Assembly: GCA_017503735.1 (NCBI GenBank)
Contig: JAFVSN010000005.1
Coordinates: 7,628 to 71,627 of the forward strand
From: Lachnospiraceae bacterium
GTDB taxonomy: Bacteria; Bacillota; Clostridia; Lachnospirales; Lachnospiraceae
Reading direction: 5' to 3'
Length of the DNA stretch: 64,000 nt
The first letter of the stretch is position 1. Each line of letters begins with the position of its first letter. The notes under the pieces were generated by a model that was not told the DNA's origin, did not search any database, and was given only the letters and a program-made list of their open reading frames with translations. The position numbers and the translations under genes were made by a program. Shown here piece after piece: positions 4,428-45,236 of this stretch.

Positions 4428-5747
4428 ATGATTGAAACTCGTACGTTGAAAAAGAGAGACATTTATTTGAACAAATTAATTGCATTTCAGGACACAGAGC
4501 CGGTAAAGGTAGTTACCGGGATTCGTCGTTGCGGCAAATCCAGCCTGTTACAATTAATGGCAATGCATTTAAGAGAGAACGGTGTTTCCGACAATCAGAT
4601 TATAGAAATGAATTTTGAGTCCCATGATTTTAATCGGATGTCTGCGGACGAATTTTATGAATATGTAAAGCAAAAGGTTTTACCGGGAAAACGGATGTAT
4701 CTGTTCTTTGATGAGTTGCAGAGAATACCGGGTTGGGAGGAGACCGTGAATTCCTTTCGGGTGGATTTTAACTGTGATATTTATATCACGGGTTCCAATG
4801 CATATTTACTATCTTCGGAGTATGCCACGTATCTTTCGGGTAGGTGTGTGGAGATAAAGATGCTGCCGCTTTCCTTCCGTGAGTTTTTGTATTTTCATGA
4901 CTTTGAAGTGAAAGAAAGCGAAAGTGTATTGGGAGGGAAACGGCTACAGGTTCTTGACAAGCAGGGAGAGCGCTATGATTTGAGGGATACGTTTGAGGCA
5001 TATATGCGTCTTGGAGGGATGCCGGGAATTGCAGAAGTAGGGCTTAATCAGGAACGGGCATTGGTGCTGTTAGACGGAATCTATTCCACGGTTATTGTGA
5101 GAGATATATTAGAAAGAGAGAAGAGAAGGGGACAAAAAAGTATTGCAGATCCTATGTTGCTACGGAAAATTATATTGTTTTTGGCGGATAATATCGGTAG
5201 TAATATCTCTGTTTCGTCCATCGGAAACGTTCTTGTAAATGAAGGGCTGTTAGAGTGTGAAGGGCGGAAGGGTTTGCCGAGTGCACATACAGTACAGGCA
5301 TATGTGAATGCGTTGCTAGAGTCTTATTTTTACTATGATATCAAACGGTTTGATATTAAGGGAAAAGAGTATCTGAGGACACTGGGGAAGTATTATATTG
5401 TAGATATGGGACTTCGGAATTATCTTTTAGGTTTTCGGAACAGGGATAGCGGGCACGCATTGGAAAATGTTGTGTACTTTGAATTGTTGCGCAGAGGGTA
5501 TGATGTGGCAATCGGAAAAGTGGATAACAGTGAAGTGGATTTTGTGGCTACGAAAGCAGATGATAAGCTGTATGTCCAGGTAACCGAATCTATGACAAAT
5601 GAGGAAGTTCGTAAGAGGGAACTTGCTCCGCTTCAGAAGATAAATGATAATTACGAAAAGATAGTGTTATCGCTTGAAACGGGACTTGATTCATCCTATG
5701 AAGGAATAAAATCATTGTCAATTGTCGATTGGTTGCTTGCGGAATAG
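4428..5747 (+). CDS. AAA+ ATPase of the COG1373 type (AAA_14 N-domain plus DUF4143-like C-domain)
   Basis: Walker A is GIRRCGKSS and Walker B is YLFFDELQ. The C-terminal EVDFVA...YVQVTES motif is nuclease-fold-like. RBS GAGGAGG precedes ATG 4428. Confidence 0.75.
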   Translation: MIETRTLKKRDIYLNKLIAFQDTEPVKVVTGIRRCGKSSLLQLMAMHLRENGVSDNQIIEMNFESHDFNRMSADEFYEYVKQKVLPGKRMYLFFDELQRIPGWEETVNSFRVDFNCDIYITGSNAYLLSSEYATYLSGRCVEIKMLPLSFREFLYFHDFEVKESESVLGGKRLQVLDKQGERYDLRDTFEAYMRLGGMPGIAEVGLNQERALVLLDGIYSTVIVRDILEREKRRGQKSIADPMLLRKIILFLADNIGSNISVSSIGNVLVNEGLLECEGRKGLPSAHTVQAYVNALLESYFYYDIKRFDIKGKEYLRTLGKYYIVDMGLRNYLLGFRNRDSGHALENVVYFELLRRGYDVAIGKVDNSEVDFVATKADDKLYVQVTESMTNEEVRKRELAPLQKINDNYEKIVLSLETGLDSSYEGIKSLSIVDWLLAE

Positions 5748-10836: not shown

Positions 10837-13800
10837 TTACATCTCCTCCATTGTTTTATACTTCTGATACCGTACACCGGAATCTTCCTTTGCGGCCTTA
10901 AACAAGCTTTCCGCATGCTCCGGGAAGGTACGCTTTAGGGAAGCATAACGGGTCTCACCCTCAAGGAACTCTTCGTAGTCTAAGGACGGCTCCTTGGAGT
11001 CTACGGTTAACGGCTTTTCTGCGTTCGGATTGTAGCGGTATAAAATCCAGTAGCCTGCGTCAACGGCGCGCTTCATTTCCTGCTGTACATTTGCCATGCC
11101 GGCCTTGATGCCGTGAGCGGCACACGGAGTGTAAGCGATGATAACGGACGGTCCCTTGTGTTCCTCTGCTTCCTTGACTGCCTTGATTAACTGGTTCGGG
11201 TCTGCTCCCATAGCTACCTGAGCCACGTATACATTACCGTAGGTCTGGAAGATAGCACCCAGATCTTTCTTTCTGCTGCGCTTACCTGCGGAAGCGAACT
11301 GCGCTACTGCACCCAGCGGAGTAGCTTTGGAGCTCTGGCCGCCGGTGTTAGAGTAAACTTCGGTATCTACAACAAATACGTTAATGTCTTCTCCGCTGGC
11401 TACCACGTGGTCCAAACCGCCGAAGCCGATGTCGTAAGCCCAACCGTCGCCGCCGAACATCCAGAAGCACTTCTTGGATAACTGGTCCTTACGCTCTAAA
11501 ATCTTAGCCGCGGTAGCGGAATCCATGTTTTCCAGCTCTGCTACCAAAGCATCCGTGGTTTCACGGGATTTATCAAAATCATCAAAGCTGTCTAACCAGT
11601 TCTTTGCGGTTTCACTGCCGGTTTCTGCGGCGTATGCTTCCACTAAGGTCTTTTGCGCCTGACGCTGTTGCTTTACGGATAAGAACATACCCAGAGCAAG
11701 CTCTGCATTGTTCTCAAACAAGCTGTTGGTCCAAGCCGGTCCGAAACCACGCTTGTTGGTAGTGTACGGAATACCCGGCATCGGGGAGCCCCAAGCCTGG
11801 GAACATCCCGTAGCGTTTGCCCAGTATACACGGTCACCGAAGAGCTGGGTTAAAAGCTTTGCATACGGAGTCTCGCCGCAACCTGCACAGGCAGCGGAGA
11901 ACTCCAAGAGCGGCTGACGGAACTGGCTTCCCTTAATGGTGTACGGGGAGAATAAATCACCCTTGTCGGAAACAGAAAGTCCGTAGTTCCATAAGGTATT
12001 CTTTTCTTCGTTTAATTCTACCGGCTTCATAGTGATGGCAGGCTCCTTTGCCGGACAGCAAGCTACACAGCTGCCGCAACCGGTACAGTCGTAAGCGGAA
12101 ATCTGCATGGTAAAATGCAGACCCTTTGCAGCCGGACCGTTTGCCGGGGCAGTAATAAAGCCCTCCGGAGCGTTTGCCTTTTCTTCGTCGTTCAGTAAGT
12201 ACGGACGGATCACAGCGTGCGGACATACAAGAGCACACTTGTTACACTGGATACATTTCTGTGCATCCCAAACCGGTACCTGTAATGCGATACCGCGCTT
12301 TTCATAAGCGGTAAGACCAAGGTCGATGCGGCCGTCTTCGTAGCCCTTAAATGCGCTGACCGGAAGGTCGTCGCCTTTTTGCTTGTTAATCGGCTCCAAA
12401 ATACCGGTAACAACAGCCGGAACGTCAAGGGCAGCGGCTGCTTCGGATACTTCTTCCGCATCCTTCCAGGAAGCCGGAACCTCTACCTTTACAAGCTTCG
12501 TTGCGCCGGCATCAATTGCTGCTACGTTACGAGCTACGACATCGTCTCCCTTTGCAAAGTAGGTCTTCTTGGTAGCGGCCTTAATCATTTCCAGTGCTTC
12601 CTCGGTCGGGATAACTTCCATCAGTGCGAAGAAGGAAGCTTGAAGCACCGTATTGGTATGACTGCCGAGGCCTAATTCCTGAGCAATCTTATTTGCATCA
12701 ATGACATAGAAGTTGATGTTCTTCTCCGCAATCTGGTGGCGCACCTTTGCCGGAATGTGAGAAGTCAGCTCGTCGCCGGTCCAGGAACAGTTAAGAAGGA
12801 AGGTACCGCCTTCTACGATTTCGTCTACAATGTCATACTGGGTAATGTAGCTCTGGTTGTGACATGCTACGAAGTCTGCGCTCTTTACATAGTAGGAGCT
12901 GGTAATCGGCTCATCACTGAAACGTAAGTGGGACTTGGTCACACCGAAGGACTTCTTTGCATCATATTCAAAGTACGCCTGAGCGAACTTGTCGGTATTG
13001 TCGTTAATAATACGAACGGTGTTGTGGTTTGCACCTACGGTACCGTCACCGCCCAGACCCCAGAACTTACAACGAATCACGCCGGCCTTTGCATCAGAGA
13101 ACGGCTTTACCGGTAAGGAAAGATGGGTCACATCATCGTTGATACCGATGGTAAAGTTGGTCTTCGGAGTTGCGGAAGCAAGGTTCTCGAATACAGCTAA
13201 AATCTGTGCAGGGTCGGTATCCTTGGAGCTTAAGCCGTAACGGCCGCCGATGACCTTAATGTTTCTGTCGGAGCTCATCAGTACGCTGCATACATCCTCG
13301 AATAACGGCTCGCCGGCACTGCCCATTGCCTTACAACGGTCAAGCACTGCGATACGCTTCACGCTTTCCGGAAGAGCCTTTAAGAAGTACTCTGCGGAGA
13401 ACGGACGATATAAGTGTACCTGTAAGAAGCCTACCTTCTTGCCTTCTGCGCGAAGGGCATCCACCGCATCGCGGATGACGCCGCTGGCGGAACCCATGGC
13501 GATGATAACATCGGTAGCATCCGGATCGCCGTAGTAGTTAAATACATGGTACTCACGACCGGTAATCTTTGTAATTTCACCGAGATACTTTTCCACGATG
13601 TCCGGAAGGGCATTGTAGAACGTGTTGTGAGCTTCGCGCACCTGGAAGTAAACATCGCCGTTCTGTACGGTGTTACGTAAGGTCGGGTGCTCCGGATTTA
13701 AAGAACCGTCCCGGAATTCTTTTAAAGCGTCCTGATTGATAAGGCTGCCTACCGCATCCATATCCGGAAGCTCGATTTTATTGATTTCGTGGGAGGTACG

Positions 13801-14322
13801 GAAACCGTCAAAGAAGTGCATAAACGGAATCCGGCCTTCGATGGCGGATAAATGTGCCACCGGTGCTAAATCAGCTACTTCCTGGACACTGCCGGAAGAT
13901 AACATGGCAAAACCGGTCTGACGGCAGGCCATCACGTCGGAGTGGTCGCCGAAAATACCCATGGCATGAGTACCAACGGTACGGGATGCTACATGAAGTA
14001 CCGCCGGAAGACGTTCCCCGGCAATTCGGTACAGTACCGGCACCATTAACATGAGTCCCTGAGAGGACGTATATGTAGTAGCCAAAGAACCGGTTTGCAG
14101 TGCACCGTGTACAGCGGTAATCGCACCTGCTTCGGACTGCATTTCGGTTAAGGTTACGGTCTGGCCGAAGACGTTTTTACGTCCCTTTGCAGACCAGGCA
14201 TCGGTCAGTCCTGCCATCGGGGAGGACGGAGTGATCGGATAAATTGCGGCTATCTCGGTAAAGGGATAGGCCATATGTGCGGCAGCTTCGTTGCCGTCCA
14301 TGGTAACAAAATTCTTAGCCAT
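10837..14322 (-). CDS. nifJ: Pyruvate:ferredoxin (flavodoxin) oxidoreductase, single-polypeptide NifJ type
   Basis: About 1161 aa. N-terminus MAKNFVTMDGNEAAAHMAYPFTEIAAIYPITPSSPM. Two 4Fe-4S ferredoxin motifs (CIQCNKCALVCPH, CTGCGSCVACCP). TPP-binding GGDGWAYDIG. RBS AAGAGGT before ATG 14322; the ORF track extension to 14415 overlaps the upstream gene. Confidence 0.92.
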   Translation of the reverse strand: MAKNFVTMDGNEAAAHMAYPFTEIAAIYPITPSSPMAGLTDAWSAKGRKNVFGQTVTLTEMQSEAGAITAVHGALQTGSLATTYTSSQGLMLMVPVLYRIAGERLPAVLHVASRTVGTHAMGIFGDHSDVMACRQTGFAMLSSGSVQEVADLAPVAHLSAIEGRIPFMHFFDGFRTSHEINKIELPDMDAVGSLINQDALKEFRDGSLNPEHPTLRNTVQNGDVYFQVREAHNTFYNALPDIVEKYLGEITKITGREYHVFNYYGDPDATDVIIAMGSASGVIRDAVDALRAEGKKVGFLQVHLYRPFSAEYFLKALPESVKRIAVLDRCKAMGSAGEPLFEDVCSVLMSSDRNIKVIGGRYGLSSKDTDPAQILAVFENLASATPKTNFTIGINDDVTHLSLPVKPFSDAKAGVIRCKFWGLGGDGTVGANHNTVRIINDNTDKFAQAYFEYDAKKSFGVTKSHLRFSDEPITSSYYVKSADFVACHNQSYITQYDIVDEIVEGGTFLLNCSWTGDELTSHIPAKVRHQIAEKNINFYVIDANKIAQELGLGSHTNTVLQASFFALMEVIPTEEALEMIKAATKKTYFAKGDDVVARNVAAIDAGATKLVKVEVPASWKDAEEVSEAAAALDVPAVVTGILEPINKQKGDDLPVSAFKGYEDGRIDLGLTAYEKRGIALQVPVWDAQKCIQCNKCALVCPHAVIRPYLLNDEEKANAPEGFITAPANGPAAKGLHFTMQISAYDCTGCGSCVACCPAKEPAITMKPVELNEEKNTLWNYGLSVSDKGDLFSPYTIKGSQFRQPLLEFSAACAGCGETPYAKLLTQLFGDRVYWANATGCSQAWGSPMPGIPYTTNKRGFGPAWTNSLFENNAELALGMFLSVKQQRQAQKTLVEAYAAETGSETAKNWLDSFDDFDKSRETTDALVAELENMDSATAAKILERKDQLSKKCFWMFGGDGWAYDIGFGGLDHVVASGEDINVFVVDTEVYSNTGGQSSKATPLGAVAQFASAGKRSRKKDLGAIFQTYGNVYVAQVAMGADPNQLIKAVKEAEEHKGPSVIIAYTPCAAHGIKAGMANVQQEMKRAVDAGYWILYRYNPNAEKPLTVDSKEPSLDYEEFLEGETRYASLKRTFPEHAESLFKAAKEDSGVRYQKYKTMEEM

Positions 14323-14389
14323 TTTAAATACCTCTTTTATTTGTTGTAGTCGGATTTGACGAAGAGCCGGTGGCCCGGACATCTTCTTT

Positions 14390-16906
14390 CTAATTGTTAC
14401 TCTTTGCGGTGTCAATGCCTGCGGCGCCGACTAAACCGAGACGCTCCGCAGCTTCTTCACGCATTTTATATTTTAACACTTTTCCCGCTGCATTCATAGG
14501 GAAAGATTTCACAAATTCGATATATTTCGGAACTTTATGACGGGCCATGCTTGCGGCGATGTAGTCATGCATTTCCTCTATGGTCATGGACTTGCCGTCC
14601 TTTAAGATAATGCAAGCCATGGCTTCCTCACCGTACTTTTTATCCGGAACACCGATGACCTGTACATCCTGTACATTCGGATGGGTGTAAATGAATTCCT
14701 CGATTTCTTTCGGATAAATGTTTTCACCGCCACGGATAATCATATCCTTAAGACGGCCGGTGATGCGGTAGTTGCCGTCTTTATCCCGGCAGGCAAGGTC
14801 ACCGGAGTGGAGCCAGCCCTGTGCATCTACGGTACCGCGGGTTGCTTCCGGCATCTTATAGTAGCCCTTCATGGTATTGTAACCGCGGGAACAGAATTCG
14901 CCGTTTTCGCCGTCTGCCACTTCTTCGCCGGTTTCCGGATCGATAATTTTACACTCGATGTGAGGGAAGTTATAACCTACGGTGTCGCAACGTAAGTCTA
15001 ACGGGTCGGTCCATGCGGACATGGTGCTTCCCGGAGAAGACTCGGTCTGTCCGTATACGCTGACGATGCCGATCATATTCATTTCGTTAGGATCTGCCGC
15101 ACGGCGCATTAATTCCGGTGGGCACCCCGCACCTGCCATAATACCGGTACGCATATGGGAGAAGTCCGTCTTTCTGTAATCTTCGTGATTGAACATTGCG
15201 ATAAACATAGTCGGTACGCCGTTAAAGCAGGTGATACGCTCCTGATTGATGCAGGCCAGAGAGGACTTCGCGGAGAAGTACGGCATCGGGCATACGGTTG
15301 CACCGTGGGTCAGGGAAGCGGTCATGGAAAGTACCATACCGAAACAATGGAACATCGGTACCTGAATCATCATACGGTCCGCGGTGGAGAGCCCCATGCG
15401 GTCACCGATACATTTTCCGTTGTTGACTACATTATAATGGGTTAACATAACGCCCTTCGGGAAGCCGGTGGTTCCGGAGGTGTACTGCATATTACATACA
15501 TCTTCCGGCTTTACTCTTGCTGCCATACGGTTCAGTTCTTCCTGCGGAACTAAGTTACCGCGTTCCATGGCTTCGTCAAAGGTAAGACATCCCGGCTGCT
15601 TAAAGCCTACGGTGATAACGTTACGAAGGAACGGAAGACGTTTACAATGCAGCGGTTCCCCCGGTTTGCTTGTGGCAATTTCCGGACAAATCTCATTGAT
15701 GATTTCTCTATAGTTGGAATCCAGACAGGACTCTACCATAACTAAGGTGTGGGTATCGGACTGGCGGAACAAATAGTCTGCCTCGTGTCTTTTATAGGCG
15801 GTATTCACCGTAACCAAAACCGCACCGATTTTGGTGGTAGCCCAAAAGGTGATGAACCATGCCGGAACGTTGGTTGCCCAGATGGATACTTTGCTTCCGG
15901 CCTTTACACCCATGGAAATCAATGCCTTTGCAAATTGGTCTACATCCTCACGGAACTGTTCGTAGGTACGCACATAATCCAATGTGGTATATTTGAACGC
16001 ATACTGATCCGGGAACTCTTCTACCATACGATCCAGTACCTGAGAGAATGTCAGATTGATTAACTCATCCTTCTTCCATACATACTGACCGGTACCGTCA
16101 TGGTTCGGATACAATGCTTTTTTCTTGCCACGGGTCTTTTCAAAGCGGCTCATATAGTTGACAAAGTGGGTAAAAATCACCTCGTAATCCGGCAAATCTT
16201 CCATCCATTCGGTCTTCCACTCTAAGGAAATAAAGCCATCGTAGTCGATGGAAGAGAGGGCGCGCATAATGTCCGCCACCGGCATGGAACCTTCGCCGAT
16301 TAAGTTGTAGGTATCCTTGTCATCGGAGTCACGTAAGTGTACATGTTTTACATAAGCTCCGAGATTTTTAATGGTAGTATCCGCGCTTTCCTCACAGTCC
16401 CGGTACGGATGCTGTACATCCCATAATGCAGCCAGATAGTCGCAGGCAAAATCATCCAACATGGAGCGCAGACGGGCGGTGTCGGAAAAAATACCGCTGG
16501 TCTTCACAAGAACGGTTACTTCTGCAGCCTCTGCCTCCTGTAATAATTCGGTTAAACGGGTGCGGACAAGGTCTTCTTTATCCTGCAGGGCAACTACGGA
16601 TACATACGGTACCTCGGCCTGCTTTGCAATCTGGATTAATTGTTTTACCAAGGCAACCGCGTCGTTTCCCTCTACGGACAAATCGCAGGAGGTATCAAAA
16701 CACGGAATGGAGAGCCTCTTTTCTCTCAACTGACGAACGGTTGCGCCGATGTTATATTTATGGAACGGGCCGCTTTTTTCAGCCAAGGAAGGAACGTAAG
16801 GTAAATTGTAAACTTCCACACCTTCAAAGCGCATATCTACGCCGGCGGCAAGCCATTCTTCCCATGACAGGTGGGACCAACCTCTGGTAGAAAATGAAAG
16901 TTTCAT
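14390..16906 (-). CDS. Fusion protein: N-terminal xylose-isomerase-like TIM-barrel domain plus C-terminal AMP-forming acyl-CoA synthetase/ligase
   Basis: Residues 1 to about 265 form an AP_endonuc_2/sugar-phosphate-isomerase-like barrel (FEGVEVYN, HVHLRD, ISLEW). From about residue 290, all ANL adenylation motifs are present: YTSGTTGFPKG, YGQTE, SGD, GRLKDMIIRGGENIYP and the catalytic-Lys region AAGKVLK. RBS AGGAGG lies within the last codons of the upstream gene, with a 3-nt gap. Confidence 0.85.
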   Translation of the reverse strand: MKLSFSTRGWSHLSWEEWLAAGVDMRFEGVEVYNLPYVPSLAEKSGPFHKYNIGATVRQLREKRLSIPCFDTSCDLSVEGNDAVALVKQLIQIAKQAEVPYVSVVALQDKEDLVRTRLTELLQEAEAAEVTVLVKTSGIFSDTARLRSMLDDFACDYLAALWDVQHPYRDCEESADTTIKNLGAYVKHVHLRDSDDKDTYNLIGEGSMPVADIMRALSSIDYDGFISLEWKTEWMEDLPDYEVIFTHFVNYMSRFEKTRGKKKALYPNHDGTGQYVWKKDELINLTFSQVLDRMVEEFPDQYAFKYTTLDYVRTYEQFREDVDQFAKALISMGVKAGSKVSIWATNVPAWFITFWATTKIGAVLVTVNTAYKRHEADYLFRQSDTHTLVMVESCLDSNYREIINEICPEIATSKPGEPLHCKRLPFLRNVITVGFKQPGCLTFDEAMERGNLVPQEELNRMAARVKPEDVCNMQYTSGTTGFPKGVMLTHYNVVNNGKCIGDRMGLSTADRMMIQVPMFHCFGMVLSMTASLTHGATVCPMPYFSAKSSLACINQERITCFNGVPTMFIAMFNHEDYRKTDFSHMRTGIMAGAGCPPELMRRAADPNEMNMIGIVSVYGQTESSPGSTMSAWTDPLDLRCDTVGYNFPHIECKIIDPETGEEVADGENGEFCSRGYNTMKGYYKMPEATRGTVDAQGWLHSGDLACRDKDGNYRITGRLKDMIIRGGENIYPKEIEEFIYTHPNVQDVQVIGVPDKKYGEEAMACIILKDGKSMTIEEMHDYIAASMARHKVPKYIEFVKSFPMNAAGKVLKYKMREEAAERLGLVGAAGIDTAKSNN

Positions 16907-16909
16907 GGA

Positions 16910-18316
16910 TTAAGCCTCCTCATAAACAATTTTATTGATGGCACTGATATAGGCCTGAATACTGGAGCCGATAATATCAGTGGAAGTTCCGCGGCCGGAA
17001 TAGAGTTTTCCGTGGTCACGGAGCTTGATGATGGTTTCACCCATTGCCTCACGGCCTTCCGTTACGGAACGAATCTGGAAATCGTCCAGCTCGTAATGAC
17101 GGCCCAGAATATTTTCCAAAGCAAGGAATGCCGCATCCACCGGACCGTCGCCCAATGCAACACCCTCTAAGGTCTGGCCGTTCTTCTCAAGCTTCATCTG
17201 AGCCATGGAAGATGCGGTATTGCCGGCGGTAATGTGATAGCTGGTTAATATGTAAGTGGCCGGTACCTGCATAGCTGCGGAAGCGACGATGGTGTCCAGT
17301 TCCTTGGAGGAAATAACGTCTTTGCGTGCCGCTATCTTCCCGAATGCCTCCCATACCTTTGCACTGTCTTCTTCACTTAAGTCATAGCCTAATTTTTCAA
17401 CCGCTTTTAATACGGTAGTCATGGTATCCTGCGCGGTAAGGTTCATTTCCTCTACGTCATCCTGTACTCCGTTGTCAAACGGGGAATTCTTGCTGCGGGT
17501 GGTTTCGCAAATCCATGTAATTTGCTTTACGATGCGGTTCATTTCTACGGTACGAACCGAGCAAGTCACGCCGAAAGAATCTCCTCTGGTTGCAAGCAAA
17601 CGTGCAATGTTTGCAAGGGAAATCTGATTGGTGCAGTAAGCGGATGCCTTGATTTCCCGCACACCGTGCTTAATGGCCGCAATGGCACAGGCATCTGCCA
17701 TGGCCAATTCGTTGGAGCAGGAAAGACCGAGAACCACATTCTGAAGCTCCGGAACATTTTTATTTAAAGCATCAAAAAATTCGGCAAACTCTTCCGGAAG
17801 CATGGCACCGGTAGCGTCACATACCGTAACGGTTTTTGCACCGGCTGCAATGGCGGTTTTGATCGCCTGATATAAAAATGCTGCGTCGCTTCTGGTGGCA
17901 TCGTCTGCAATAAATTCAACATCCGGGGTCTTTTCGCAACATGCGGTTACGATTTCCTCGATGGCTTTTAACATGGCATCCGGTTTCTTGTGGAATAAGT
18001 ATTCCATTTGCACGGGACTGACGGAAGCCAATACCTGCAAACGAGGATTTTTTGCTTCTTTTACCGCATTCCATGTGGTCTCAACGCTTTCCGTATTTAA
18101 AGAAACCGGCACGGCAACAATACTGTTTTTTACTGCTGCTGCAATAGATTTGATGCGGAGCGCATCTACCTTCGGTTGGGAAATACCTTCCAGTTCGATG
18201 ACAGTTACATTTAGTTTATCTAATAGTTTCGGCAACTCGATTTTTTCTTTAAAGGATAGGGAGAATTCTTTCCCAGTCTGTTTTAACGTTGTGTCGCTGA
18301 TTCTGATTTGGTTCAT
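16910..18316 (-). CDS. 2-isopropylmalate synthase (LeuA/DRE-TIM) paralogue with substituted catalytic/metal residues and an intact C-terminal LeuA-type regulatory domain
   Basis: 468 aa from ATG 18316, with RBS AAAGGAGA. It is collinear with LeuA, but DTTLRDGEQ is DTTLKQTGKE, HxHxDxG is SCSNELA, NGIGERAGN is YCTNQISLAN, and ESGIHQDG is SPFDNGVQDD. The C-terminal approximately 130 aa keep the LeuA_dimer-like pattern (GDGPVDAAF...GREAMGE...GRGTSTDIIGSSIQAYISAIN). Confidence 0.8.
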   Translation of the reverse strand: MNQIRISDTTLKQTGKEFSLSFKEKIELPKLLDKLNVTVIELEGISQPKVDALRIKSIAAAVKNSIVAVPVSLNTESVETTWNAVKEAKNPRLQVLASVSPVQMEYLFHKKPDAMLKAIEEIVTACCEKTPDVEFIADDATRSDAAFLYQAIKTAIAAGAKTVTVCDATGAMLPEEFAEFFDALNKNVPELQNVVLGLSCSNELAMADACAIAAIKHGVREIKASAYCTNQISLANIARLLATRGDSFGVTCSVRTVEMNRIVKQITWICETTRSKNSPFDNGVQDDVEEMNLTAQDTMTTVLKAVEKLGYDLSEEDSAKVWEAFGKIAARKDVISSKELDTIVASAAMQVPATYILTSYHITAGNTASSMAQMKLEKNGQTLEGVALGDGPVDAAFLALENILGRHYELDDFQIRSVTEGREAMGETIIKLRDHGKLYSGRGTSTDIIGSSIQAYISAINKIVYEEA

Positions 18317-18473
18317 GATTTTGTCTCCTTTCATTTTACCTGTTTTCGCGCTGGCGATGCTTTGCATCAGCCCCCACCTCGTGACTCCGTCACTCGGTCG
18401 TGGGCGCGTTCGCATGCTCAGCGAGTTCGGAAGCAAGCTTCCGAACTCGCTTCGATGTTCACTTTGCCAGCAC

Positions 18474-18742
18474 GAAAAAAAGTCCCTGAAGTCATATGAC
18501 TCCAAGGACGAATAAACGATTCGCGGTACCACCTTGCTTACAGCCTCCTTACGGAAAACTGTCACTCTCGGACTCTATTAAGCCCATAGCCGATAACGAG
18601 GCTGACCGTACTCCACTACACAAATAGATATCCTTCGCAGAGTCGACTCGGGAGTGAGATTGCTGTCTTCCATCCGTACCGGTTCGCACCAACCACCGGC
18701 TCTCTGAAACCCTCAAAAAAGAAGCATAATTCCGTCACAGTC
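18474..18742 (-). promoter_or_regulatory. T-box riboswitch leader; probable Leu specifier CUC
   Basis: Read on the minus strand: a K-turn-like GACUGUGACGG...CCCGAGUC base, AG bulge AGAGAG, distal-loop GGUGCGAA, an F-box-like CUCGUUA, the T-box core GGUGGUACCGCG (+ strand 18522-18533), then a terminator stem (18482-18509) plus U7. In the specifier-loop region (AAUCUCACU) CUC is the only triplet followed by a purine. The UGGU bulge matches discriminator A73. Confidence 0.85.
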
Positions 18743-18767
18743 ATTCTTATCAATTAAAAACGAGACA

Positions 18768-42846: not shown

Positions 42847-43902
42847 ATGCGGAACAGGAAAAGCAATAGAACGCTGAAAAAGAGAGCGGTAGCTACCGGT
42901 CTCTTTCTTGGCATTCTGTGTACTTTGGGCGGGTGTGTACGACCGACGGTGCAGCCTACGGGGACGCCGGAACCTACAAAGGAGATTTCGGAGAACGTTA
43001 CGCAGTCACCCATAGAGGAAGTAACCCCGGTTCCTACCGTTACCCAACCGCCGGAAATAACCCCGGAACCGACTCGGGACGTGGAGATTCCTACGGGACG
43101 TCCCACACCTTCACTTCCTACGGGAGTGCCGGATGTTTCACCTACTCCGGTGACGGGCGGGGCGATTTCAGTAACGCCGGAAGTAACCCCGGAACCGACC
43201 GAGGCGCCGGAGGTGACCCCGGAACCGACCGAGGTCCCGGAAGTGACCCCGGAACCGACCGAGGCGCCGGAAGTAACCCCGAAACCGACCGAGGCACCGG
43301 AAGTGACCCCGGAACCGACCGAGGCGCCGGAAGTAACCCCGAAACCGACCGAGGCACCGGAGGTAACCCCGGAACCGACCGAGGCGCCGGAGGTAACCCC
43401 GAAACCGACCGAGGCGCCGGAGATAACCCCGGAGCCGACCGAGGCACCGGAGATAACCCCGGAGCCGACCGAGGCACCGGAGGTACAATCGGATTATGAG
43501 GTGTTGATACAAAACGGGTGGCAGCGGACAGAGGACTTCTTTGTGGGCCGGAGTATTTATTTTTCCGGAAGGTTTACGCAGACCGAATTGTTGACGGAAC
43601 CGGGACGATATGAGTATCGCTATACGACAACGGAGGATGCCGAGGCAGTTTTTTCGATCATCGGAGAAGAATTGCCGGTACAGACCTTTTTAGATGAATT
43701 GACACAAAAAGGACCGGCCTGTGAGATTACGAAGGAAGCAGAAGAAGATTACGGCTATCGATATACGGAACAGGGACGCGTGGTATTCGGTCGGGTCTAT
43801 GCCTGTTTTGTGGAAGAAAAAGAATATCGTATGCGGATTGAGATGTCATATTCGATAGGGACGGAATCTCAAACCGAGGAATATCGATTCTATTTGAAAT
43901 AA
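42847..43902 (+). CDS. Lipoprotein with a long (EVTPEPTEAP)n linker and a C-terminal globular domain of unknown function
   Basis: Signal peptide plus lipobox LGGC. About 10 near-identical decapeptide repeats. Confidence 0.6.
   Translation: MRNRKSNRTLKKRAVATGLFLGILCTLGGCVRPTVQPTGTPEPTKEISENVTQSPIEEVTPVPTVTQPPEITPEPTRDVEIPTGRPTPSLPTGVPDVSPTPVTGGAISVTPEVTPEPTEAPEVTPEPTEVPEVTPEPTEAPEVTPKPTEAPEVTPEPTEAPEVTPKPTEAPEVTPEPTEAPEVTPKPTEAPEITPEPTEAPEITPEPTEAPEVQSDYEVLIQNGWQRTEDFFVGRSIYFSGRFTQTELLTEPGRYEYRYTTTEDAEAVFSIIGEELPVQTFLDELTQKGPACEITKEAEEDYGYRYTEQGRVVFGRVYACFVEEKEYRMRIEMSYSIGTESQTEEYRFYLK
43171..43485 (+). repeat. About 10.5 copies of a 30-bp coding tandem repeat
   Basis: The unit GAGGCGCCGGAGGTGACCCCGGAACCGACC recurs every 30 bp from 43201 to 43470 with only 1-4 substitutions per copy. 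Partial copies flank the tract. Confidence 0.9.
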
Positions 43903-44783: not shown

Positions 44784-44836
44784 ATGTTGCCTCTCAACAG
44801 GTTTTGTTCGTAAAATTAAAAAAATAAAAAAAGTTG

Positions 44837-44868
44837 TTGACAATTAAAAGAAAAGGTGTTAGTATAAT
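44837..44868 (+). promoter_or_regulatory. Promoter for the tRNA-Leu pair
   Basis: TTGACA (44837-44842), then either a 17-nt spacer to TGT-TAGTAT (extended -10) or a 20-nt spacer to TATAAT (44863-44868). The first tRNA starts at 44879. Confidence 0.6.
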
Positions 44869-44878
44869 AGGGCAGTTC

Positions 44879-44962
44879 GCAGTTGTGGCGGAATTGGCAT
44901 ACGCGCATGATTCAGGTTCATGTCCACGTACGTGGGTAGGGGTTCAAGTCCCCTCAACTGCA
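44879..44962 (+). tRNA. tRNA-Leu, anticodon CAG
   Basis: Manual cloverleaf: acceptor GCAGTTG/CAACTGC, A73, anticodon stem CATGA/TCATG, loop TTCAGGT (anticodon 44913-44915), a long variable arm and T-loop TTCAAGT. No CCA is encoded. Confidence 0.9.
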
Positions 44963-45001
44963 TCGTACCGTATGCAAAACAATGTGAGGTGCGTATTATA
45001 T

Positions 45002-45084
45002 GCGGAAATGCTGGAATTGGCAGACAGGCATGACTAAGGATCATGTGGTCCCCGACCGTGAGGGTTCAAGTCCCTTTTTCCGCA
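45002..45084 (+). tRNA. tRNA-Leu, anticodon AAG (A at wobble position 34)
   Basis: Manual cloverleaf: acceptor GCGGAAA/TTTCCGC, A73, D-stem CTG/CAG, anticodon stem CATGA/TCATG, loop CTAAGGA (anticodon 45036-45038, G37), variable-arm hairpin GGTC/GACC and T-arm GAGGG-TTCAAGT-CCCTT. Confidence 0.85.
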
Positions 45085-45096
45085 TTATAAAATTGT

Positions 45097-45138
45097 AAAC
45101 GGCAGTATCCTGTTTGGGATACTGCCGTTTTGTGTTTG
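45097..45138 (+). terminator. Intrinsic terminator after the tRNA pair
   Basis: AAACGGCAGTATCC / GGATACTGCCGTTT followed by TGTGTTT. Confidence 0.8.
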
Positions 45139-45236
45139 AAAAAATGTGTTAAAATCGTAGGAAATGAGTGAAACGGTGCTATCCTTAAAGAACCGTTTGC
45201 TCAGAAACGAGAAAATCATACAGAAATAGAGGAAAA

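Follow-up and report, generated by a model that had tools for sequence, protein, structure and literature searches.

Results

A leucine tRNA gene with an AAG anticodon

The window (the whole 64-kb stretch of Lachnospiraceae DNA that was analyzed, positions 1–64000, with a GC content of ≈45%) carries two leucine tRNA genes, which lie together on the forward strand in the order promoter, tRNA-Leu(CAG), tRNA-Leu(AAG), terminator. The features of this unit are as follows:

44837–44865, + strand: sigma-70-type promoter, with −35 TTGACA at 44837–44842 and −10 TAGTAT at 44860–44865
44879–44962, + strand: tRNA-Leu(CAG), first gene of the unit, called by ARAGORN and matched by the Rfam tRNA model with 54 bits
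45002–45084, + strand: tRNA-Leu(AAG), class II, 83 nt, identified with Rfam RF00005 and ARAGORN
about 45097–45140, + strand: intrinsic terminator, a 15-bp hairpin (AAACGGCAGTATCC...GGATACTGCCGTTT) followed by a T-run

When the 64-kb window was searched with ARAGORN, tRNA-Leu(aag) was called at 45001–45085 and tRNA-Leu(cag) at 44879–44962, both on the + strand, with no third tRNA. For the second gene, the amino acid and the anticodon matched those of the initial annotation. RF00005 aligned to 45002–45084, the coordinates of that annotation, over its full length (model positions 1–71) with 50 bits, compared to a gathering score of 29, and with E-values of 3 × 10−9 in a 2-kb search and 1 × 10−7 in the whole window.

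The class II cloverleaf that had been proposed for this gene was borne out by the sequence, Rfam and ARAGORN alike. It consists of a 7-bp acceptor stem (GCGGAAA/UUUCCGC), a D stem with the pairs C10–G25, U11–A24 and G12–C23, an anticodon stem of CAUGA/UCAUG (DNA CATGA/TCATG) closed by G30–C40 and A31–U39, a long variable arm and a normal T arm, with a 5-bp stem and a GTTCRA loop. U8, A14 and the discriminator A73 are all present, while CCA is not encoded by the gene. A73 and A14 are the LeuRS identity elements of bacterial tRNA-Leu. The anticodon loop (45034–45040) reads C32-U33-A34-A35-G36-G37-A38, with A34 at 45036; AAG thus occupies positions 34–36 and is followed by G37, as the initial annotation had it. 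The thermodynamic fold was unremarkable (z = −1.5), which is usual for tRNAs and uninformative as evidence; support for the structure comes from the covariance model and from covariation across the relatives, and not from folding energy.

The neighboring tRNA-Leu(CAG) has the same anticodon stem, CATGA/TCATG, as had been observed previously, with the loop UUCAGGU. An origin of the AAG gene as a recent duplicate of this neighbor was considered and rejected: the acceptor and D stems differ, and only the anticodon stem is common to the two.

The promoter, partner tRNA and terminator assigned to the unit in the initial annotation were all recognizable upon inspection of the sequence. The promoter matches the consensus at 10 of 12 positions, has a 17-nt spacer that contains a TG, and lies 14 nt upstream of the first tRNA; it is preceded by an A/T-rich tract at ≈44813–44834.

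Two other properties of the window were recorded. An ORF at 42847–43902 on the + strand includes 10.4 tandem copies of a 30-nt unit with 91% identity (43175–43485), encoding Pro/Thr/Glu-rich repeats of the type PTEAPEVTPE in a protein for which no Pfam hit is recorded. GC skew was positive in every 4-kb window, the cumulative skew climbs steadily over 1–64000, and the long ORFs are mostly on the + strand, suggesting that the window probably lies on one replichore with its genes co-oriented with replication.

The AAG gene is conserved across the Lachnospiraceae

The exact 83-nt gene was found in 19 GTDB species-representative genomes, all of them Lachnospiraceae or "Clostridia" MAGs, and the 17-nt arm CATGA-CTAAGGA-TCATG in at least 119 stretches of species-representative genomes. 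Taken together, the arm matches and the 19 exact matches gave at least 124 loci with a tRNA-Leu(aag) called by ARAGORN, mostly from Lachnospiraceae, where taxonomy was taken from the record titles and relatives were read as 8-kb blocks. The isolates with this arm include Cuneatibacter sp. NSJ-177, Lacrimispora saccharolytica An861, Hominifimenecus sp. rT4P-3 (complete genome), Roseburia sp. CAG:309 and Clostridium sp. CAG:167; further carriers are a few other Clostridia. A protein of the window is encoded identically on a 295-kb scaffold of the metagenome assembly ERZ28653793, and for another window protein the nearest homologues with a name come from Roseburia sp. and Lachnospiraceae MAGs. 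The rarity in bacteria of A34 outside tRNA-Arg(ACG), on which the initial annotation had remarked, stands, but the gene is no oddity within its own family, since AAG is the rule in Lachnospiraceae.

A tRNA-Leu(AAG) with the Lachnospiraceae-type arm was also seen in three enterococci: Enterococcus sp. DIV0756 (L045), E. avium ATCC 14025 (L107) and E. raffinosus DSM 5633 (L108). Enterococcaceae has been treated as a GAG-only family (PMC13249217).

Among 66 distinct trimmed relatives, 981 of 990 base-pair cells in the stems were paired, and 10 of the 15 pairs in the acceptor, D and T stems had undergone compensatory double changes. None of the 66 departed from U8, A14 or A73, and a variable-arm hairpin of at least 3 bp was present in 65 of the 66, in a count where trimming was offset by one base. 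The tRNA-Leu(CAG) gene lay in tandem upstream of the AAG gene at 23 of 124 related loci, out of at least 124, and a sigma-70-like site was located no more than 75 nt upstream of the AAG gene or the CAG–AAG pair at 107 of 124 (counting the window and its own contig). Among close relatives, the window promoter is nearly identical upstream of the operon. The identical copies across species, the compensatory stem changes and the conserved promoters show that the gene is under selection, in agreement with the previous suggestion that it is functional. Like the Oenococcus and Streptococcus type, it is a functional, conserved gene with a genomic AAG at 34–36.

The AAG gene as a probable replacement of a clostridial tRNA-Leu(GAG)

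The same 17-nt arm with G34 instead of A34 had 27 matches in 185,579 genomes, none of which was called as a tRNA by ARAGORN. This number is close to the chance expectation for a 17-mer and, with no tRNA among the matches, indicates that A34 is fixed in this arm. The 27 matches had been considered as orthologous GAG controls and were dropped, none being a tRNA. A sample of tRNA-Leu(GAG) genes was instead collected with a generic pattern in which the stem, position 38 and Y32 were free, yielding at least 120 genomes from many phyla. Among the 80 record titles displayed out of 120 GAG-bearing genomes sampled, there was no Lachnospiraceae (0/80).

The D arm of the window tRNA (UGCUGGAAU.GGCAGACAGG) is shared with the GAG tRNAs of L197, L198, L202, L241 and L242, whose titles are clostridial ("Clostridia", Ruminococcaceae, Ruminococcus, Porcipelethomonas and Eubacteriales). 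The two D-arm segments, 45011–45014 and 45024–45027, were listed with these five loci and with L268 and L270; the tRNA-Leu(CAG) neighbor has the usual G10–C25. When tRNAs were clustered by their bodies, after removal of the anticodon and variable arms, the cluster of the window tRNA held 123 AAG tRNAs and one GAG tRNA. Neither the window nor any of the AAG-containing loci, covered as 8-kb blocks of the relatives, had a tRNA-Leu(gag) called by ARAGORN, and the AAG gene often comes directly after CAG, as GAG does in GAG-bearing genomes. No assembly accession was common to the AAG sample and the displayed GAG titles, a result that is uninformative. Based on the shared body, the CAG-adjacent slot and the lack of gag in the AAG loci, the AAG gene is best regarded as an orthologue of the clostridial GAG gene, which it would have replaced in this genome.

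The anticodon arm resembles that of the TadA substrate

Nucleotides 30–40 of the window tRNA (GACUAAGGAUC) were compared with those of the tRNA-Arg(ACG) of L371 (GACUACGGAUC). The two differ at position 35 alone, which is A35 in the leucine tRNA and C35 in the arginine tRNA. The substrate in the Staphylococcus aureus TadA co-crystal has A31–U39, C32–A38, G36 and G37, and its C35 is splayed out, making one hydrogen bond to the enzyme (PMC3711424, PMC11472039). Judged by this comparison, the sole departure from the canonical substrate is at what would be the least constrained position. All the elements of an arm acceptable to TadA (U33-A34-N-G36, C32–A38 and A31–U39) are present in the sequence.

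The arm is different in GAG tRNAs. The 109 distinct GAG tRNAs sampled had either the loop UUGAGGG (74) or UUGAGGU (35); U32 was found in all 109, and A38 and the closing pairs G30–C40/A31–U39 in none. The genome AAG set had been chosen by its arm, and arm statistics were therefore taken only from a metagenome sample of tRNA-Leu(AAG), in which positions 32 and 38 and the stem were unconstrained and which comprised 92 distinct genes among the matches listed. In this sample of 92, the loop was CUAAGGA in 78, A38 was present in 88, and the GA..UC closing pairs in 84.

AAG tRNAs fall into ≈30 body clusters, 15 of which also hold GAG tRNAs, in some cases with a body that is the same or nearly the same, the arm being the only difference. 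The AAG tRNA of L365 had no body differences in 48 nt from the GAG tRNA of an actinobacterium (L172); those of L327 and L310 had 1–2 differences from a Victivallaceae GAG tRNA (L174), that of L313 had 3 from one of Planctomycetota (L228), and those of L040 and L302 had 3 from one of Ruminococcaceae (L198). The presence of AAG and GAG tRNAs in shared body clusters suggests that the switch between G34 and A34, together with remodeling of the arm, happened repeatedly. Unless A34 has to be deaminated, it is difficult to see why a TadA-type arm was adopted again and again.

The GAG-type U32 was kept in 14 of the 92 AAG genes (L316, L317, L303, L325, L308, L371 and others), often with GAG-type closing pairs, and the bodies of L316 and L317 are identical to that of an actinobacterial GAG tRNA. 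Possible explanations for these U32-type genes are a recent G34A mutation, a lack of editing or pseudogene status.

Neither a six-frame search of the window for deaminase motifs nor a tblastn comparison of E. coli TadA with the window and the 405 loci revealed a TadA. E. coli TadA rejects tRNA-Leu(AAG) (PMC11472039), and likeness of the arm alone is thus no guarantee of editing.

Other A34 tRNAs were encountered at two loci. In a Lachnospiraceae MAG (L130, CANQNE010000048.1), a tRNA-Pro(AGG) at 4512–4588 on the − strand lies ≈1 kb from a Leu(AAG)/Leu(CAG) pair. Its arm, CAACG-UUAGGGA-CGUUG, has a C–G closing pair and is unlike the TadA substrate, so this tRNA may be unmodified or non-functional. 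A 5.9-kb metagenome contig (L328, JAEEGL011320501.1) has a dense array of 18 tRNA genes, three of them with A34: Arg(ACG), Leu(AAG) and Ser(AGA). On its 5′ side, the arm of the serine tRNA is also TadA-like (GA-CUAGAAA-UC). The array may be a phage or mobile tRNA island.

CUC codons and a CUC-specific T-box

The leucine codons in 47 long ORFs of the window were counted as UUG 493, CUU 353, UUA 350, CUG 341, CUC 79 and CUA 29. CUU thus exceeds CUC by 4.5:1, opposed to the C-preference in the Thr and Ser boxes and resembling the ratio of CGU to CGC (253:109) in the box read by ICG. At 116 AAG-bearing genome loci, CUU was enriched over CUC relative to other NNY pairs with a median log-odds of ≈1.0, compared to 0.4–0.9 for GAG-bearing loci of similar GC (Mann–Whitney p = 8 × 10−4 at GC 0.40–0.55), a modest contrast that is confounded by phylogeny, as the AAG loci come mostly from a single family and the GAG loci from many phyla. 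CUC still made up 10–25% of Leu codons in AAG-bearing loci with GC > 0.40, and at GC 0.55–0.62 it accounted for 24.5%, compared to 17.6% for CUU. Some tRNA must therefore read CUC efficiently; it could be a tRNA with I34, an undetected GAG tRNA or an mo5U34 tRNA-Leu(UAG).

The window also includes a leucine-specific leader:

18501–18747, − strand: T-box leader, Rfam T-box score 106 bits (gathering score 93)

Its specifier is the leucine codon CUC, at 18656–18658 on the − strand; in the 3′ strand of the specifier loop, CAA-U-CUC-A is aligned with GAA-a-uuc-a of the model consensus, and the UGGU bulge fits a tRNA with A73. The leader lies upstream of an operon of three genes, with which it spans 10837–18747 on the − strand. 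The genes encode a LeuA-like protein with HMGL-like and LeuA_dimer domains, an 838-aa protein that joins a xylose-isomerase-like TIM barrel to an AMP-dependent ligase, and a PFOR-like 2-oxoacid:ferredoxin oxidoreductase of 1181 aa. This gene set is unusual and appears closer to a leucine pathway in which isovalerate is reductively carboxylated than to the classical leuABCD operon.

Related Lachnospiraceae (L406–L411) have retained both the operon and its leader, and the CUC specifier was kept in homologous leaders of three other species-level lineages, which were gathered through their LeuA homologues and not by AAG status. A search for T-box motifs in the fetched loci gave too few candidates for a comparison of leucine specifiers between AAG and GAG loci. 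CUC pairs with GAG or IAG and mismatches unmodified AAG, UAG and CAG, so that the specifier, as predicted, excludes the combination of no GAG with an unmodified A34 and is compatible with I34. B. subtilis possesses a tRNA-Leu(GAG). CUC is the classical leucine specifier, that of the B. subtilis ilv-leu leader, according to a reference in PMC2494555.

Discussion

A model for decoding by tRNA-Leu(AAG)

We consider the most likely explanation, with a probability of roughly 75%, to be that TadA deaminates A34 and that the resulting IAG tRNA decodes CUU and CUC in place of a GAG tRNA; the deamination, the enzyme and the absence of GAG are what we infer. The ancestor would be an ordinary clostridial tRNA-Leu(GAG), in which the first anticodon base changed from G to A and the anticodon arm was rebuilt to resemble that of tRNA-Arg(ACG), the natural substrate of TadA. 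Given such an arm, TadA should turn A34 into inosine. Inosine can pair with U, C and A, and the IAG anticodon would read CUU and CUC, and CUA weakly. The AAG and CAG tRNAs would be co-transcribed from the promoter, which is of a strong, stable-RNA type, with transcription stopping at the intrinsic terminator, and CCA would be added post-transcriptionally. Following the TrmD rule for m1G37, this modification is presumably made by TrmD.

The strongest competing explanation, although an improbable one, is that A34 stays unmodified, reading CUU by Watson–Crick pairing and perhaps other CUN codons by relaxed wobble, with CUC left to another tRNA. There are precedents: tRNA-Thr and tRNA-Ser of Oenococcus oeni keep A34 (PMC8072771), and ANN tRNAs in four-fold boxes are tolerated experimentally (bioRxiv 10.64898/2026.05.15.725136). 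The 4.5:1 preference for CUU in the window fits this explanation as well, and reading by inosine, for its part, requires that TadA be adapted. However, an unmodified A34 leaves unexplained why independent AAG lineages converged on C32, A38, A31–U39 and G30–C40, an arm seen in 0 of 109 GAG tRNAs. It also sits poorly with the carriers of higher GC, which use CUC more than CUU, and with the leucine T-box, which retains a CUC specifier that mismatches A34. In addition, every tRNA-Leu(AAG) tested so far was fully edited (PMC11472039, PMC13249217).

It is rather more doubtful that a tRNA-Leu(GAG) is retained elsewhere in the genome and that the AAG tRNA is an extra, partly redundant isoacceptor. If GAG were present, the CUC codons and the CUC T-box would be trivially explained and need no inosine, and the data consist of a 64-kb window and 8-kb blocks of relatives. 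Against this, none of the AAG-containing loci has a tRNA-Leu(gag), the AAG gene has both the body and the after-CAG slot of a clostridial GAG tRNA, and Lachnospiraceae account for 0 of the 80 displayed GAG titles but for most AAG matches. AAG and GAG exclude each other at the family level in Lactobacillales (PMC13249217). As another conceivable route, CUC could be read by an mo5U34 tRNA-Leu(UAG), by analogy with the B. subtilis tRNA-Pro(mo5UGG), which reads CCC according to a reference cited in PMC6063277. Finally, although one G-to-A change suffices to turn GAG into AAG, the data refute a recent mutation of this kind, a pseudogene and a position-34 error in sequencing or assembly. The gene is identical across 19 species and between independent assemblies of its locus, A34 occurs in at least 124 genomes and G34 in no tRNA with this arm, and the covariation and the conserved promoters add to the case.

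Comparison with known A34 tRNAs

Most documented bacterial cases of A34 beyond tRNA-Arg(ACG) come from Lactobacillales, in which TadA deaminates tRNA-Leu(AAG) (PMC11472039, PMC13249217, PMC8072771). I34 in tRNA-Leu(AAG) was shown in O. oeni, according to a review (PMC8072771); in Streptococcus pyogenes, where the enzyme is TadA (PMC11472039); and in S. mutans and S. pneumoniae, with effects on fitness and recoding (PMC13249217). The gene has been reported in "some Firmicutes" (PMC8007984), and almost all bacterial tRNA-Leu(AAG) genes have been placed in Bacilli (PMC13249217). A GtRNAdb survey from 2026 lists Lactobacillus, Lactococcus and Streptococcus, with high AT, as carriers (bioRxiv 10.64898/2026.05.15.725136).

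The window tRNA is like those of Lactobacillales (O. oeni, S. pyogenes, S. mutans, Lactobacillus and Lactococcus) in its anticodon, class II structure, four-fold codon box and Firmicute host, and it, too, apparently substitutes for GAG. It has the UAAG core (U33-A34-A35-G36) of the S. pyogenes TadA targets (PMC11472039). In contrast, its host belongs to Clostridia, family Lachnospiraceae, and has ≈45% GC, compared to 30–40% GC in the described genera; its body derives from a clostridial GAG tRNA with C10–G25 in the D stem, and its editing is predicted from the arm. The clostridial-type body with C10–G25 suggests an origin separate from that of the Lactobacillales tRNA-Leu(AAG).

Compared to tRNA-Arg(ACG)/ICG, the canonical TadA substrate, the window tRNA is identical to the Firmicute-type arm over nt 30–40 apart from position 35, with G37 likewise following G36, but it has leucine identity, a class II body and A35 rather than C35. 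Bacterial unmodified A34 tRNAs that serve four-fold boxes, as this one does, are the tRNA-Thr(AGU) of Mycoplasma, in which A34 is unmodified and reads by relaxed wobble, and the tRNA-Thr(AGU) and tRNA-Ser(AGA) of O. oeni. These remain unedited, whereas the leucine tRNA of the window has a TadA-like arm. The eukaryotic tRNA-Leu(AAG)/IAG, modified by ADAT2/ADAT3, shares the anticodon and the decoding logic, in which an A34 gene replaces a G34 gene. The ADAT2/ADAT3 heterodimer recognizes the whole tRNA shape and does not read the loop sequence (PMC9643335), unlike the present case, where the arm appears to be adapted to a sequence-specific homodimeric enzyme.

In the literature covered by our search, which was incomplete, we found no description of tRNA-Leu(AAG) in Lachnospiraceae or other Clostridia, or of mimicry of the TadA substrate by the arm of AAG tRNAs; public tRNA databases must already contain the Lachnospiraceae AAG genes. 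The proposed mechanism is a known one, extended here to a major gut family, and the case stands out for its broad host clade with moderate GC content.

Implications

For a long time, a single arginine tRNA was believed to be the only one with wobble inosine in bacteria. On balance, we are somewhat inclined to believe that leucine wobble inosine is far more widespread in bacteria and normal in Lachnospiraceae, a dominant gut family, having arisen many times across phyla by a change of G34 to A34 and by copying of the tRNA-Arg(ACG) arm at nt 30–40, so that the existing, sequence-specific TadA accepts it. Leucine I34 has been tied experimentally to genome-wide synonymous recoding and a growth advantage in streptococci (PMC13249217), and editing of leucine tRNA to broader mRNA editing by TadA (PMC11472039). 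The signature GA-CUAAGGA-UC would be a simple predictor of edited A34 tRNAs, and the repeatedly rebuilt arm would provide natural material for studying how an RNA-editing enzyme of strict specificity acquires new substrates. If leucine I34 is made in Lachnospiraceae, their TadA has to take on a second substrate and may also edit mRNA at UAAG sites; leucine T-boxes with a CUC specifier in these organisms would sense an inosine-containing tRNA; and models of codon usage and translation efficiency for Lachnospiraceae should take IAG, not GAG, as the anticodon for CUY.
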